DNA from: a virus
Lineage: Duplodnaviria > Caudoviricetes
Strand: one strand, 5' to 3'
Length of the DNA: 64,000 nt
Virus record (IMG/VR): IMGVR_UViG_3300044259_000026
Coordinates: 9,786 to 73,785 of that record
The notes below the pieces were generated by a model, which was not told where the DNA came from, did no database searches, and saw nothing but the letters and a program-made list of their open reading frames with translations. Each line of letters begins with the position of its first letter. The first letter of the stretch is position 1. Shown one piece after another: positions 14,945 through 58,086 of the stretch. The translations under genes and the position numbers were made by a program.

Positions 14945-15021
14945 AGAGGAATCGCCAAGTTGGTTAAGGCACTGGATTTTGATTCCAGCATTCGAAGGTT
15001 CGAATCCTTCTTCCTCTTCCA
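14945..15021 (+). tRNA. trnQ: tRNA-Gln(UUG)
   Basis: Acceptor AGAGGAA/TTCCTCT; anticodon arm CTGGA-TT-TTG-AT-TCCAG; GGTTCGAATCC T-loop; encoded CCA. Confidence 0.9.
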
Positions 15022-15027
15022 CTTTCT

Positions 15028-15102
15028 TGGTGAGTAGCAAAGCGGTAATGCACCGGACTGTTAATCCGGGGATCACAGGTTCGAATCCTGTCTCACCAGC
15101 CA
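15028..15102 (+). tRNA. trnN: tRNA-Asn(GUU)
   Basis: Acceptor TGGTGAG/CTCACCA; anticodon arm CCGGA-CT-GTT-AA-TCCGG; T-loop; CCA. Confidence 0.92.
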
Positions 15103-15106
15103 CTTT

Positions 15107-15183
15107 CAGGAATTAGCTCAGTTCGGTAGAGCGCGTCGTTTGGGACGATGAGGTCGTGGGTTCGATGCCTACATTCCTGACCA
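15107..15183 (+). tRNA. trnP: tRNA-Pro(UGG)
   Basis: Acceptor CAGGAAT/ATTCCTG; anticodon arm CGTCG-TT-TGG-GA-CGATG; CCA. Confidence 0.92.
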
Positions 15184-36682: not shown

Positions 36683-36795
36683 TGGCGCCCGCAGAGTGGA
36701 TTCGAACCACTGACCTTCAGCGACGGCGGATCTTTAACGGGAGCTACCCTAGATCCTGTGTGGCCGATGCTCTAACCGACTGAGCTACTTTGGGC
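36683..36795 (-). ncRNA. tRNA-like element with 41-nt structured anticodon loop
   Basis: D-arm TAGCTCAGTCGGTTAGAGC; anticodon stem TCGGC/GCTGA; variable AGGTC; T-arm AGTGG-TTCGAAT-CCACT; 3' CCA; imperfect acceptor stem. Confidence 0.8.
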
Positions 36796-53731: not shown

Positions 53732-54058
53732 TTACTCCTTAGAGTCTTCAGGACGCAGCAGACTTGTGAAGCGCTGATAGGCTTCGTTGTAGTGAGCAGC
53801 ATGACGCTCGGACTTCAGGCAGAACTTGTCGGCCTTGATGGCGAGAGATGCACGTTCCTCGGATTTCTCCATGATGAGGTTCTCGATGAAGGTCTCTTTG
53901 TCTGCGATCTGACGGATGCGTTGGTTCTCAGCAGCTTGACCTACGAACGAGGTGGCCATGCCTACAGCAGTGGATACAGTATCCAGAGTTGCAGTCACGG
54001 TATTTGCAGTCGAGCTTACGGTGTTGAGCAGAGCGCTGAAGGTCATACGAGTGGACAT
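53732..54058 (-). CDS. gp1: N4 gp1-like early protein (108 aa)
   Basis: MSTRMTFSALLNTVSSTANTV...; first gene after hairpin promoter; GGAG RBS. Confidence 0.8.
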   Translation of the reverse strand: MSTRMTFSALLNTVSSTANTVTATLDTVSTAVGMATSFVGQAAENQRIRQIADKETFIENLIMEKSEERASLAIKADKFCLKSERHAAHYNEAYQRFTSLLRPEDSKE

Positions 54059-54091
54059 AGGATGGACTCCATTGATTGAGGGCATGATTGC

Positions 54092-54110
54092 CATACGATG
54101 CGCAGCATCG
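54092..54110 (-). promoter_or_regulatory. Virion RNAP hairpin promoter (P1-like), +1 at 54092, transcribing leftward
   Basis: Template C-ATAC-GATGC-GCA-GCATC-G; same geometry and loop as 53308. Confidence 0.85.
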
Positions 54111-54266
54111 AAGTGTAATGAACACGGGGGTAGGGTCATGGAGTGTATCCAGTGTACCGGGGGGGTACTTGGCAATTGGGGCGGGGCGCCGGAGGTGTAC
54201 AGTGCCTTGGAACATAGCTATGATGCCTACCAGAACCTTTCTCCTACATAATCTGCGGAGCCTGCC

Positions 54267-54460: not shown

Positions 54461-54500
54461 AAAAAATATGCAGGAGGATTTTGCCTATCGCTCCTGCTAT
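54461..54500 (-). terminator. Terminator closing the paralog array
   Basis: GCAGGAG-(14 nt)-CTCCTGC with minus-strand TTTTTT. Confidence 0.7.
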
Positions 54501-54715
54501 TTAATCTGGAGGTAGATGCACGCTTCCCCGTCGACTCTGCCTATCCTAGGCTTATGGGGCACGATCCCCTCCAGTAAAGCCATGCCCAACAAGAGGTCGT
54601 ATTGTTCTTGGTTCTGGACAACCATTTGGACATCCCAAGCACGGGCGTACAGTTCAGCCCGCTTATAGGAAATCTCCTGCCACTTATCGTCGCCCCTTGA
54701 GAAGTAGAGCTTCAT
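54497..54715 (-). CDS. Array paralog 14 (72 aa)
   Basis: Core MVVQNQEQYDLLLGMALLEGI. Confidence 0.8.
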   Translation of the reverse strand: MKLYFSRGDDKWQEISYKRAELYARAWDVQMVVQNQEQYDLLLGMALLEGIVPHKPRIGRVDGEACIYLQIK

Positions 54716-54942
54716 TCGACCACCTTAACGTAGAGGGTGTAGGGCTCTTGGCCTATGCGGATTTGGGATGCGTCTTGTAGATCGAAACCTATGCCCATCA
54801 TCAGCTGCCAAGCCAAGACCATGGGAATGTCATCCTTATCAGAGGCGAAGTACCACATGTTGGAAGAGGTCAGGGTTTGAATTTCCCCTTCGTGAAATGC
54901 CCGAAGGTTGCCACCCCGGTGCAGGGCATACTGTAGTTCCAT
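54712..54942 (-). CDS. Array paralog 13 (76 aa, divergent)
   Basis: Core WYFASDKDDIPMVLAWQLMMGI; ends YVKVVE. Confidence 0.7.
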   Translation of the reverse strand: MELQYALHRGGNLRAFHEGEIQTLTSSNMWYFASDKDDIPMVLAWQLMMGIGFDLQDASQIRIGQEPYTLYVKVVE

Positions 54943-54946
54943 TGGT

Positions 54947-55168
54947 TCACTCCTCAATACGAACGTAGACTTGGTACTTGGACAGGAACTCTGTATTTTT
55001 GACGATGACTGGAATGTCCACCCCTTCGATTATTTTGAGCACTTCAAGGATCTCTTTGTCTCCTTCGTGCTGGACTACGATGTCCCGTCCTCGGTCGTAG
55101 AGATGTTTTAGGGTAGTGGTGATCCAGGCATCTTCTTTCGCATATCTCAAGCGGTACTGTATCTGCAC
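54947..55168 (-). CDS. Array paralog 12 (73 aa)
   Basis: Core IVVQHEGDKEILEVLKIIEGV. Confidence 0.75.
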   Translation of the reverse strand: MQIQYRLRYAKEDAWITTTLKHLYDRGRDIVVQHEGDKEILEVLKIIEGVDIPVIVKNTEFLSKYQVYVRIEE

Positions 55169-55171
55169 ATC

Positions 55172-55405
55172 TCACCCCACGAATAGGAAGACACAGGAGT
55201 CAAGATCCGCGGCCTTTACTTCAGACCGTAGGATGATGCGTTTGAAATGAGTTCCATCCACCAACATCAAAGTCTCAAGGAGATCCTTTTGTTCTTGGCT
55301 CTCCATGACAAAGATCCAAGCGTCAAAGCGGGACAGCTTTCGGACAGTCTCCACAGACATGGGCTGGTAAGGGTGGGAGACATTGCAGGTATAGAAGTAT
55401 TCCAC
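55172..55405 (-). CDS. Array paralog 11 (77 aa)
   Basis: Core IFVMESQEQKDLLETLMLVDGT. Confidence 0.8.
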   Translation of the reverse strand: MEYFYTCNVSHPYQPMSVETVRKLSRFDAWIFVMESQEQKDLLETLMLVDGTHFKRIILRSEVKAADLDSCVFLFVG

Positions 55406-55408
55406 GGT

Positions 55409-55624
55409 TCACTCCCTGAAGTAGATTTTGACGGACCAGTTGTTGGGGGTGGCTATCTGGACCTCAGGTAGTTGGGTGCCTGCGACCAAGGATAGGCCCA
55501 GCAAATGGTCATAGTCTTCTTGGTTCCTGACATGGAGTGGAGCACCGAACTGTCTACAGAACCGAAGACACTCTTCGAGGGAAGTCTCCCGGTCACCATC
55601 AGGATGACTCAGCATGAGTTTCAT
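55409..55624 (-). CDS. Array paralog 10 (71 aa)
   Basis: Core LHVRNQEDYDHLLGLSLVAGT. Confidence 0.8.
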   Translation of the reverse strand: MKLMLSHPDGDRETSLEECLRFCRQFGAPLHVRNQEDYDHLLGLSLVAGTQLPEVQIATPNNWSVKIYFRE

Positions 55625-55626
55625 AG

Positions 55627-55863
55627 CTACTCCGGCAGGGCTGCAATATGGCAGGGAGTCAGTCCAGTGGTGTTCTCATCTACCCCATCCAGAAGGACTT
55701 GGAGACGGACGCCCCAGACAAGGGCAGAACCAAGGAGATAATCCTTCAGTTCTTGCGTATCTACGATGATCGGCTCGTAGACATAAGGTGATTCCATGAT
55801 GTCCTTCAAGTCGATAGGGAAGGACTTGATGGAACCAAGGGAAACCTTCTGAATGAGTTCCAT
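55627..55863 (-). CDS. Array paralog 9 (78 aa)
   Basis: Core IIVDTQELKDYLLGSALVWGV. Confidence 0.8.
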   Translation of the reverse strand: MELIQKVSLGSIKSFPIDLKDIMESPYVYEPIIVDTQELKDYLLGSALVWGVRLQVLLDGVDENTTGLTPCHIAALPE

Positions 55864-56081
55864 TACTCCACTACCTTGACGATCACTTCGTTCATAGCGA
55901 TAGGTTGATCGTCATCGATACGGACATAAGCCTCGACCCCATAAACTATAAGTAACGCTTGAAGTAGATGCTCTTGGTTTCGGTCGAAGACGACCATATG
56001 GACCCCTTTCCAGCGGGGACTTTCGAGATCCATAGTCATCCAATGGGTGGTATAACGGGAATGGGTATACAAGGTTTTCAT
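55863..56081 (-). CDS. Array paralog 8 (72 aa)
   Basis: Core MVVFDRNQEHLLQALLIVYGV; ends IVKVVE. Confidence 0.78.
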   Translation of the reverse strand: MKTLYTHSRYTTHWMTMDLESPRWKGVHMVVFDRNQEHLLQALLIVYGVEAYVRIDDDQPIAMNEVIVKVVE

Positions 56082-56105
56082 AAGGACTCCTTAAATATGA
56101 GAGAG

Positions 56106-56312
56106 CTAAATAGGACGTACCCACCACCCTGTGAGTTTGACAGTGTTGAGTGGGATCTGAAGGTTCAGTTCTACACCATCCAGTAGGCACATGCCCAACA
56201 GGATATCCAAGGTCTCCTGATCCTTCACCCATAAGGTGGTTGTCTTGTTGAGGTCCCGAAGCTCAGCTTGAGCCCGATACTCAGAATTTACAGCTTGGTA
56301 TTCTATTTGCAT
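56106..56312 (-). CDS. Array paralog 7 (68 aa)
   Basis: Core LWVKDQETLDILLGMCLLDGV; ends GWWVRPI. Confidence 0.8.
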   Translation of the reverse strand: MQIEYQAVNSEYRAQAELRDLNKTTTLWVKDQETLDILLGMCLLDGVELNLQIPLNTVKLTGWWVRPI

Positions 56313-56527
56313 GGCCGAATCCACCATCCGAGCTTAGGCTTGACAAGGGAGTAGGTGATTTTGAAGGCTAGTCCGTGAACCAATAGAAGCCCTACCAGCT
56401 CGTCCAGATCATCTTGGGACTGGGCGTGCAGATTTAGGGTTTGCTCTGGTCCCTGCTTTAGGATGCCTAGGTCTACTGCCGTCCATCCGAAGCAAGACTC
56501 CGATACGTGACAGACTTCTACGATCAT
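56303..56527 (-). CDS. Array paralog 6 (74 aa)
   Basis: Core LHAQSQDDLDELVGLLLVHGL; ends GWWIRPCK. Confidence 0.8.
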   Translation of the reverse strand: MIVEVCHVSESCFGWTAVDLGILKQGPEQTLNLHAQSQDDLDELVGLLLVHGLAFKITYSLVKPKLGWWIRPCK

Positions 56528-56778
56528 GTGACTACCCTCAGCTCTACAGTTTTCCCAGCTTCATGTGGTTGCCATGGGTCTAGTCGAATTTCGACCCCCT
56601 CAAGTAGGGAGTAACCCGCGATCATTTCGTGATGGATGTGGTTTGTGGCGAAGCATGGTTTGAATTGGTCAGTACCCTCGTAGAGGATGTTGTCGTTTTG
56701 AAAGGTGGCTAGTTCTTCTAGGTCTCGGAGAAAGCTGCCGTCCCACTCTTGCTTTGTAAAGCGGTACTCAATTTTCAT
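56524..56778 (-). CDS. Array paralog 5 (84 aa)
   Basis: Core CFATNHIHHEMIAGYSLLEGV; GGAGG RBS. Confidence 0.75.
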   Translation of the reverse strand: MKIEYRFTKQEWDGSFLRDLEELATFQNDNILYEGTDQFKPCFATNHIHHEMIAGYSLLEGVEIRLDPWQPHEAGKTVELRVVT

Positions 56779-56792
56779 GTGTCACCTCCAGA

Positions 56793-56835
56793 AAAAGAAA
56801 AGCCCCAGAAGGGAGTCCAATCCTCTGGGGCTTTT
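56793..56835. terminator. Terminator within the array
   Basis: AAAAGCCCCAGA...TCTGGGGCTTTT with minus-strand TTTTCTTTTT. Confidence 0.8.
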
Positions 56836-57040
56836 CAGTGTCAGGTATTCAAGGGTCCTGACTACACTGTCTATCCTATCGAACTGGCAGACCATGACTG
56901 AATCTGCGTAACCTAGGCAAGTGCCTAGTTAAGGAGCACCCGACCGATAGACTGAAGAGGTTATATCCCACCTACTCCTGGGGCCGTTATCACATGACCG
57001 CATCGTTACCGCAGCAGCCATGTGAGTCTAAATCTAGTTT
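56795..57040 (-). ncRNA. Candidate structured ncRNA inside the array
   Basis: About 270-nt gap with multiple nested helices, an upstream extended -10 (TGcTAATAT) and a downstream terminator. Confidence 0.55.
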
Positions 57041-57046
57041 TGAATA

Positions 57047-57286
57047 TTAGCAACAGAGTTCTACGAAGCAGTAGGGTCTGCCGTTTGCCTGGAAGACTGC
57101 ACCTTTGGATAGATCCAAGATCTCAACGGTGATCTGAACCCCCAGAAGAAGCAGGTAACCATCGAGCAGATCTTTCTGATCTTCCGTGTCCACAAACCAG
57201 ATACGACTCTTCACTGAAGGTATGGTGAGAAACCACTCCACGCGATTTACGTGTGTGAACTTGGAGCCTACTAGTCTCATGTTCAT
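57047..57286 (-). CDS. Array paralog 4 (79 aa)
   Basis: Core WFVDTEDQKDLLDGYLLLLGV. Confidence 0.8.
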   Translation of the reverse strand: MNMRLVGSKFTHVNRVEWFLTIPSVKSRIWFVDTEDQKDLLDGYLLLLGVQITVEILDLSKGAVFQANGRPYCFVELCC

Positions 57287-57561
57287 GTCAGTTCCTTAAT
57301 CTCCACAACCCAAAGAAAGACTATGCATTTGGACTCCCCACCCCCTCCGGTGTAGTCCAAGGGGATTTCATGAGGCCCAACGACCACATCAAACTCAAGG
57401 CTGTAGATCATGGCGTATGCTTCGAGGGTAGCCTTCTCAGCTTCCGACCTCACAACATACTGATTCTTGATGGCCCACTTAGGAGGCGGGGCAAAGATCT
57501 CATCTGTGGTGCAGACCAAGAAATGGTTTGCTCCCGGGAATCTCTTACGAATCTCGATCAT
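57283..57561 (-). CDS. Array paralog 3 (92 aa)
   Basis: Core YVVRSEAEKATLEAYAMIYSL; AGGAGG RBS. Confidence 0.75.
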   Translation of the reverse strand: MIEIRKRFPGANHFLVCTTDEIFAPPPKWAIKNQYVVRSEAEKATLEAYAMIYSLEFDVVVGPHEIPLDYTGGGGESKCIVFLWVVEIKELT

Positions 57562-57827
57562 ATGTTGATCCTCCTGAGTGGGTCCCATGTGAGGAACAAC
57601 CCGTTTCTGTTATAGACCCAAGGATTGGTGGATGCCTGTTCGGTGACCTCTCTGATCTCCAGCTCTCGGCCATACAACAGGGACATCCCCTCCAAGAAGT
57701 CAGCCTCAGCTTTCGACTCCACAAGAATCAATGGAACCCTCTCCAGCGAGTAGAACTGGAAAAGGAACTCAAGAGTGGACCTTTCGTAAGGGCGAGACCC
57801 AACCCGGAACCACAGATCAAAGTCCAC
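57558..57827 (-). CDS. Array paralog 2 (89 aa)
   Basis: Core ILVESKAEADFLEGMSLLYGR. Confidence 0.8.
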   Translation of the reverse strand: MDFDLWFRVGSRPYERSTLEFLFQFYSLERVPLILVESKAEADFLEGMSLLYGRELEIREVTEQASTNPWVYNRNGLFLTWDPLRRINI

Positions 57828-58086
57828 GGAGGTTCACCCTCCAAGTTGTGAAGACAATGGGCAATAGGCGCATATCCTCTGGAGCCTTACTCCTAACAAC
57901 CCCCACCCACTCACTATGGGTGTCCACCTGAATATTCCGCCCATAGGCCAAGGCCCAGCCCAAGATCTCATCTTTCTCTTCTTGGTTCTGGCAGAGAATC
58001 TGGAAGCGCACCTTGTAGTTGAAGACTTGCTCCTCCGTCCACTGGGCACCGTTCATCATCCCGTTGATGTGGTTGTAAAACAGCAT
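57817..58086 (-). CDS. Array paralog 1 (89 aa)
   Basis: AAGGAG RBS before ATG 58086; core ILCQNQEEKDEILGWALAYGR. Confidence 0.8.
   Translation of the reverse strand: MLFYNHINGMMNGAQWTEEQVFNYKVRFQILCQNQEEKDEILGWALAYGRNIQVDTHSEWVGVVRSKAPEDMRLLPIVFTTWRVNLRGL

Follow-up and report, generated by a model that had tools for sequence, protein, structure and literature searches.

The DNA analyzed here (the window; 64,000 nucleotides) corresponds to positions 9786-73785 of an IMG/VR virus record that is 73,785 bp long and carries terminal repeats. Its terminase region shares ~80% DNA identity with that of Pseudomonas phage Zuri, an N4-like member of the Schitoviridae, and the window represents the right end of a phage of the N4-like group that is related to Zuri. 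Fourteen small genes on the minus strand (54497-58086), encoding proteins of ~75 aa, constitute a paralog array. The sole sizeable gap in this array, between the two genes listed in Table 1, is the site of the element described below; as the first-pass annotation of the sequence had proposed, the RNA is embedded in the array, with four array genes upstream and ten downstream. A profile of the array matches gp70 of coliphage N4 (hhalign probability, 81%; E = 1.3e-5) and, weakly, gp71 (E = 0.044); the array proteins have no match in Pfam and only insignificant matches in PHROG, and no nuclease or RNA-binding family was found among them.

The 457-bp terminal repeat of Zuri maps by tblastx to nucleotides ~54240-53750 of the window, and the physical genome probably ends near 53750-54240 rather than at the ends of the IMG/VR record, a placement that is drawn from the alignment with Zuri. 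The position of the repeat puts the array and its gap at the right end of the chromosome, transcribed toward the repeat and thus outside the early genes, with 2.3 kb of genes between the element and the repeat.

Table 1. Genes and RNA features in and around the gap of the paralog array (window coordinates)
Feature	Position	Strand	Basis
Last of four upstream paralog genes, 79 aa	57047..57286	-	ORF list, family HMM
Putative -10-like element TGCTAATAT	57044..57052	-	Sequence; overlaps stop codon of upstream paralog (57047-57049)
5' hairpin P0, 12 bp, apex GGUAAC; outer arms UCACAUG (57019-57025) and CAUGUGA (56990-56996)	56990..57025	-	Fold; lineage-specific
H-type pseudoknot core	56954..56983	-	Covariation and compensatory variants
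Stem S1 and loop L1	CCC 56981-56983 with GGG 56967-56969; L1 (C-A) 56979-56980	-	
Stem S2 and loop L3	56970-56978 with 56954-56961; L3 (AUAUA) 56962-56966	-	
3' domain	56869..56952	-	Covariation of helices B and C
Helix B (GUCUAUC/GAUAGAC)	56946-56952 with 56869-56875	-	
Helix C	56939-56944 with 56878-56883	-	
Junction CUCCUU and two variable hairpins	56931-56936; 56913-56928 and 56887-56907	-	
Spacer hairpin CAGUGUAGUCAGG...CCUGACACUG	56836..56868	-	Fold; lineage-specific
Intrinsic terminator, stem ~56802-56831, U-tract 56792-56801	56792..56835	-	Folds, -17.8 kcal/mol
First of ten downstream paralog genes, 84 aa	56524..56778	-	ORF list

All of the helices named in the first-pass annotation are present on the minus strand at the coordinates it gave, and the minimum-energy fold recovers every one of them. 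These comprise the long 5' hairpin, said to carry a GTAA tetraloop and found to have the loop GGTAAC, the long-range helix (B in Table 1), which also covaries in relatives, and the strong terminator, a G+C-rich hairpin followed by a U-tract. The two hairpins enclosed by the long-range helix (CTAGGC-ACTT-GCCTAG and GCAGAT...GTCTGC) and the CAGTGT/ACACTG hairpin that follows it are likewise present and are lineage-specific, and relatives carry unrelated hairpins at the position of P0. The general description of the element as a multi-helix, pseudoknotted minus-strand RNA that ends in a terminator thus holds, but the particular pseudoknot that had been proposed does not.

The 252-nt stretch folds with a predicted energy of -95 kcal/mol, compared with -74.9 +/- 5.0 for shuffled sequences (z = -4.06), and none of 200 shuffles was as good; the plus strand of the same stretch gives z = -2.8. 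The conserved core by itself (56864-56990) is not unusually stable (z = -1.07), and the thermodynamic signal comes mostly from the lineage-specific 5' hairpin and the terminator. Stability alone is therefore no proof of an RNA, and it is the comparative data that carry the case.

Relatives in phages and prophages

No match to the region was found by blastn among 50,697 phage records. By nhmmer, positions 11-249 of the element align with nucleotides 75063-75321 of Zuri (E = 5.6e-10). This part of Zuri is a gap flanked on one side by gp101, the final gene in a co-oriented run of five small ones, and on the other by the right terminal repeat, which is ~90 nt away. A strict 28-nt pattern of the window/Zuri consensus matched Zuri alone in IMG/VR. 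Among N4-like loci fetched via the terminase gene, a covariance model of the core (R1) gave weak matches in a dozen others, all on the strand opposite TerL, and a second model rebuilt from the R1 matches (R2) detected the element in ~59 of 81 N4-like loci, in the same placement and always on the strand opposite TerL; in the whole window it gives a single match. The copy in coliphage N4 occupies nucleotides 69370-69488, in the gap between gp70 and gp71 and ~700 nt from the right end. N4 has served as a model for the study of transcription for decades, and this conserved RNA at its right end has been unannotated so far; we found no description of the RNA in the literature.

Genes of the gp70/gp71 family stand beside the RNA in Zuri (five upstream) and in N4 and its close relatives (one upstream, one or two downstream), and members of the array family also flank it in several metagenomic N4-like phages. 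At about half of the N4-like loci, no gp70/gp71 homolog was detected beside the RNA at the sensitivity used.

The family extends beyond N4-like phages. The pattern ACCCYAG-N5-8-GTGGGG-N2-5-ATAAC occurs in at least 120 IMG/VR stretches, and R2 confirmed 61 of 70 new loci found in this way, many of them on contigs of 15-62 kb that are not N4-like. In these non-N4 phages, the RNA is co-directional with HNH, TerS and TerL genes and lies 0.1-3 kb upstream of them, preceded by genes for helicases, exonucleases, regulators, integrases or spanins. Among prokaryotic genomes (596 Gb), the pattern was found in 98 stretches, mostly chance matches: 19 of the 80 tested were confirmed, and these prophage copies are nearly all from Gamma- or Betaproteobacteria. 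No copy was found in a lambdoid phage of E. coli whose terminase resembles the one at locus L122. We consider it highly probable that the element is one of a large family of structured RNAs found in proteobacterial phages, in which a compact H-type pseudoknot is the part that stays invariant. The number of phage and prophage sequences with this pseudoknot is well above a hundred, and in many of them it directly precedes DNA-packaging genes.

The pseudoknot core and the Rfam motif RF03044

The proposal of a structured RNA at this locus is borne out by covariation in relatives, which is seen in the long-range helix, in a second helix inside it and in the 5' hairpin of the core. Between the window and Zuri, both sides have changed in 16 of 46 predicted pairs (e.g., GUCUAUC/GAUAGAC to GUGAAUC/GAUUCAC). 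Across 45 distinct sequences, 89.5% of cells hold standard pairs, compared with 63.4% after shuffling, and the covariation score is 0.74, compared with 0.23 after shuffling and 0.08-0.15 when the partners are slid by one to three columns; 18 of the 20 pairs show changes on both sides. These values come from an alignment fitted to the covariance model, which favors the structure. Helices B and C show double-sided changes in 12 of 12 pairs, with 95% and 90% of cells paired, respectively; S2 covaries across the 45 sequences as well, and the frequent G-U pairs are compatible with the minus strand only.

The crossing interaction put forward in the first-pass annotation, GGAGTA with TGCTCC, is not upheld by this alignment. 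GGAG pairs instead with CUUC in a covarying stem (variants GCGG/CCGC, GCCA/UGGC and GUAG/CUAC), while the CUCCUU sequence stays constant, which leaves the GGAGUA/UGCUCC pseudoknot unsupported. As the aligned sequences are read here, the true pseudoknot is formed by the CCC that precedes a conserved "AG" and the GGG that follows "GU" in the hairpin loop. This stem (S1) is CCC(Y)/GGGG in most sequences, and compensatory variants occur in about five lineages: CCCGCC/GGCGGG in N4, UACCGCC/GGCGGUA in a group of N4 relatives, and CUCC/GGAG, CGCU/AGCG and CCGUUA/UGACGG elsewhere.

The core pattern of the family is ACCC-YAG-stem-NNGU-GGGG-AYAUAAC-stem'-CAG, followed by a two-helix stalk, and the A-rich third loop of the pseudoknot ends in AUAAC. 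After the pseudoknot come, in order, CAG, helix B, helix C, the junction, the variable hairpins, the return strands and a conserved UGA. Many members have (A)CCUCCUU as the junction; in some (loci L058 and L079), both the junction and the inner hairpins are missing, which leaves the pseudoknot as the invariant part. Mimicry of an anti-Shine-Dalgarno sequence by CUCCUU was considered as the core function and has been downgraded, since the junction is absent in these members.

A comparison of the window with Rfam, suggested in the first-pass annotation, yielded only tRNAs and chance look-alikes of terminators (NsiR1, the His leader and others), whether at the gathering threshold or at E <= 10; in the element itself, nothing reached the gathering threshold. 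Among the tRNAs are ordinary genes for Gln, Asn and Pro at 14945-15183 (+); a further match to the Rfam tRNA model, at 36687-36794 (-) (108 nt; 41.2 bits; full model 1-71), was not called by ARAGORN and reads as a tRNA-like gene with a long insert.

One Rfam family, RF03044 (Proteo-phage-1), is related to the element. Rfam files it as "Gene; sRNA," an uncharacterized orphan motif from comparative genomics. RF03044 does not match nucleotides 56600-57250 of the window at E <= 10; one relative of the element gives a faint match (12.9 bits), and scores of 13.4-20.1 bits were obtained for five relatives, compared with a gathering threshold of 42 bits. On these scores, the window element is a divergent relative of RF03044 and not a member by the Rfam criterion. 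Two bona fide RF03044 members (52.4 bits; L216, 8529-8612 (-), and L222, 12629-12712 (-)) were found by the pattern, and R2 matches bona fide members with 20.8 bits (E = 0.003), with helices B and C aligning just beyond the Rfam model.

The correspondence is confined to the 3' half of RF03044. The "hairpin 2" of Rfam (CCCA/UGGG) equals stem S1, its loop AGCCGG equals L1 plus S2a, and its conserved 3' flank AAaAACaCCGGCAG equals L3, S2b and CAG. These features (a CCC/GGG stem enclosing AG and S2a, then the flank AAaAAC-N-S2b-CAG) are all present in the window, the core of which reads CCC-CAG-GAGUAGGU-GGG-AUAUAAC-CUCUUC-AG, and both RNAs occur in phages and prophages of Proteobacteria. By contrast, the 5' half of RF03044 (CCccaG and hairpin 1 with an internal GgGG loop) is absent from the window, where an unrelated 36-nt hairpin (P0) takes its place; in the window branch, a single pseudoknot thus stands between an unrelated 5' hairpin and a larger 3' domain, with a terminator behind. 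We infer that the 5' half of RF03044 (CCCC-AG-CUGGC-GGGG-...-GCCAG) is a second, tandem pseudoknot unit. In L216 and L222, the sequence can be read as a tandem pair of H-type pseudoknot units with two more helices behind them. Neither the pseudoknots nor the 3' helices appear in the secondary structure given by Rfam. Only a narrow subset of the family had been catalogued, as an orphan motif that is now easier to test: its pseudoknot core is common to it and the N4-type RNA, the pseudoknot and 3' helices missing from the Rfam drawing are supplied, and the platform behind the fold is seen to be a terminator in some phages and a leader adjacent to the Shine-Dalgarno (SD) sequence in others.

Expression platforms and possible functions

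In the window, the terminator stands ~60 nt behind the fold, and its U-tract ends 17 nt before the ATG at 56778. An intrinsic terminator lies behind the core, at a distance of 18-141 nt, in 39 of 45 N4-like members, and the interval from its U-tract to the next start codon is often 20-50 nt. Among the non-N4 members, only ~25 of 55 have a terminator; many reach the SD sequence and start codon of the next gene within 20-120 nt, and the core often begins 5-18 nt after the stop codon of the upstream gene.

The letters of the extended -10 element TGCTAATAT, from which the first-pass annotation had derived an independently transcribed RNA, are present, but a promoter role finds no comparative support. 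The TAATAT element is not conserved in Zuri, and -10-like hexamers are not enriched upstream of the relatives (11 of 45 observed, 13.9 expected), so that a conserved sigma-70 -10 was rejected. A scan of the minus strand of the array for sigma-70-like promoters found none and did not call TGCTAATAT.

The 3' arm of the terminator, CUUCUGGGGC, is complementary over 9-10 bp to the 5' strand of the pseudoknot, GCCCCAGGAG, and the duplex between the terminator arm and the core has z = -5.0 in the window and -3.6 in Zuri. Across the family, such complementarity is at chance (mean z = -0.1 for the 5' arm and -0.4 for the 3' arm; n = 39). As a separate observation, the 5' arm of the terminator, GCCCCAGAGG, nearly copies GCCCCAGGAG (terminator stem at 56802-56831, pseudoknot strand at 56974-56984; minus strand), and the 3' arm can therefore pair with either over 10 bp; Zuri keeps this dual pairing with different letters, and the rest of the family is without it.

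The reading that we prefer, to which we assign a probability of roughly 40%, is that the element is a cis-acting, factor-dependent transcription gate, in which the pseudoknot receives a common factor. In this model, the RNA would be made as the tail of a transcript covering the four upstream gp70-type genes, the terminator would stop most polymerases 17 nt before the next start codon, and the ten downstream paralogs, with the terminal repeat beyond them, would be reached only by read-through. The pseudoknot domain would act as a receptor that sets the level of read-through via a factor common to many phage-host pairs, for which RNA polymerase itself, a host or phage protein and a small molecule are candidates; no overlapping terminator/antiterminator pairing of the classical riboswitch type would be needed. 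In relatives without a terminator, 20-120 nt separate the fold from the ribosome-binding site of the gene that follows, in many cases terminase, and the fold may act there on translation or on the fate of the mRNA. The earlier suggestion of an attenuator controlling the ten downstream paralogs fits the layout (17 nt to the start codon, no sigma-70-like promoter), whereas an attenuator of the classical riboswitch type is unsupported family-wide.

The varied expression platforms, terminator or SD-adjacent, are typical of cis-regulators and argue for a gate. Against it, dense phage genomes put any intergenic RNA near the next start codon, and the classes of downstream gene differ (gp71-type or terminase). 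Phage-specific promoters (N4 RNAPII or virion RNAP) may also lie inside or behind the element, and no transcriptome of an element-carrying phage was found in the literature.

A precedent is offered by the processive antitermination RNAs, putL and putR of phage HK022 and the EAR element from the eps operon of Bacillus; put is made up of two stem-loops, and EAR contains a pseudoknot. Like the proposed gate, these are folded RNAs encoded in cis, downstream of the point where a transcription unit begins and ahead of a terminator with which they need not overlap. The element differs from them in that it has no sequence or structure match in Rfam, and in that every polymerase arriving at the terminator has already made the RNA, so that an added regulatory factor would be required. 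A bolder proposal, which we regard as doubtful, sees in the pseudoknot the sensor of a phage regulatory RNA of a new class, either a riboswitch that responds to a signal of the state of the host or of the infection or an RNA that, like put, reprograms RNA polymerase; such a sensor would set when many proteobacterial phages enter their packaging or late genes and when N4-like phages, N4 among them, enter the gp71-type genes at the right end. A true gate on late or packaging genes would add a new layer to the temporal control of phages. Both N4 and Zuri are cultivable, which makes mutational, transcriptomic and pull-down tests straightforward.

Nearly as likely as a cis-acting gate, and itself held only tentatively, is a stable, trans-acting non-coding RNA consisting of the fold and the terminator hairpin, set free from the upstream transcript or transcribed from a promoter of its own. 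It could serve as a decoy, a sponge or a scaffold for a host or phage protein, or its exposed, C-rich CUCCUU junction could pair with Shine-Dalgarno regions. Several observations that count against a gate speak for such an RNA: the strong, stand-alone terminator behind a variable spacer equally suits a released stable RNA, antiterminator pairing between the terminator arm and the core is lacking family-wide, and Rfam places the related RF03044 in the sRNA gene class. At several N4-like loci (e.g., L004), moreover, the RNA comes first after a divergent control region, with no protein gene upstream, and the junction (A)CCUCCUU resembles the 3' end of 16S rRNA in many members. However, about half of the non-N4 members have no terminator and continue into the SD sequence of the next gene, a core that begins 5-18 nt after a stop codon leaves no room for a promoter, no upstream -10 is conserved, and the CUCCUU junction, which L058 and L079 lack along with the inner hairpins, is not the invariant functional part.

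Small RNAs have been described in another N4-like Pseudomonas phage, LUZ7, in which sRNA1-3, each <250 nt, were detected by ONT-cappable-seq in an intergenic gap between orf69 and orf70, near the virion RNAP gene, and are abundant late in infection (PMC9163698). These resemble the element as small non-coding transcripts from an intergenic gap of an N4-like phage, but they lie elsewhere in the genome; homology was rejected, as R2 finds no match there or at any other place between 30 and 75 kb of LUZ7.

A metabolite riboswitch of the classical kind, whose ligand, bound to the pseudoknot, would decide between terminator and antiterminator, is improbable. The preQ1-I, SAM-II, fluoride and guanidine-III aptamers are likewise compact H-type pseudoknots (~35-40 nt) in which the third loop is rich in A and many loop nucleotides are invariant, they too have terminator or SD-adjacent platforms, and in the window and Zuri the 9-10-bp duplex described above would provide the alternative pairing. 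That pairing, however, has a z of ~0 family-wide; the strand that would have to compete lies farthest 5', ~170 nt away from the terminator, a kinetically unfavorable arrangement; the downstream genes have no common metabolic theme or coherent function; and no Rfam riboswitch matches the element.

Still less probable is a dedicated RNA partner of the gp70/gp71-type array proteins, one of the functions raised in the first-pass annotation, whether in a ribonucleoprotein or in a system like type III toxin-antitoxins, in which the terminator would set a high ratio of RNA to protein. The order of pseudoknotted RNA, intrinsic terminator and small protein gene recalls ToxI-ToxN (and CptI), the RNA lies within gp70/gp71-family arrays in the window, Zuri, N4 and its close relatives, and others, and RF03044 members resemble two tandem pseudoknot units. 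The element is, however, single-copy and much larger than ToxI or CptI; no tandem repeats were found in 56700-57150, so that a ToxI-like repeat array was rejected, and no ToxN/AbiQ-type endoribonuclease was found downstream, where the Pfam and PHROG searches of the ~75-aa proteins gave no nuclease signature and no RNA-binding family. The association is also not kept across the family: most non-N4 members, in which the RNA stands before HNH and terminase genes, and about half of the N4-like loci have no detectable gp70/gp71 homolog adjoining, and an RNA family far wider than the protein family makes such a partnership unlikely.

Least probable is an RNA or single-stranded DNA structure at the chromosome end, used by terminase or in replication of the terminal repeat: the element is always near packaging genes or a genome terminus (the right end in Zuri and N4, and just upstream of HNH-TerS-TerL in cos-type phages), but 2.3 kb of genes separate it from the repeat in the window, its direction relative to terminase is not the same in N4-like phages as in the others, and pseudoknot-level covariation with G-U pairs points to a transcript. 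We know of no precedent beyond the pRNA of phi29, which is unrelated. A recoding signal (frameshift or read-through) was likewise rejected, because the upstream stop codon is 60 nt away in the window, the stops in N4 are tandem (TGA-TAA) and an upstream ORF is missing in some members.

Two further sequence features accompany subsets of the family. At the N4-like loci L018, L004, L010, L067, L055 and L048, the divergent control region that separates the terminase operon from the RNA contains, 100-130 nt ahead of the latter, the recurrent motif CCTATTGTCT (or CCTATAG) with a short perfect hairpin and GAACCA after it; the motif may serve as a promoter or operator specific to the phage. At loci L102, L100, L122, L163, L132 and L142, a small conserved hairpin, G(C/U)CGG-AAAGA-CCGGC, lies just 3' of the core. 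This hairpin occurs in several non-N4 members without a terminator and may be an extra part of the RNA in that branch.
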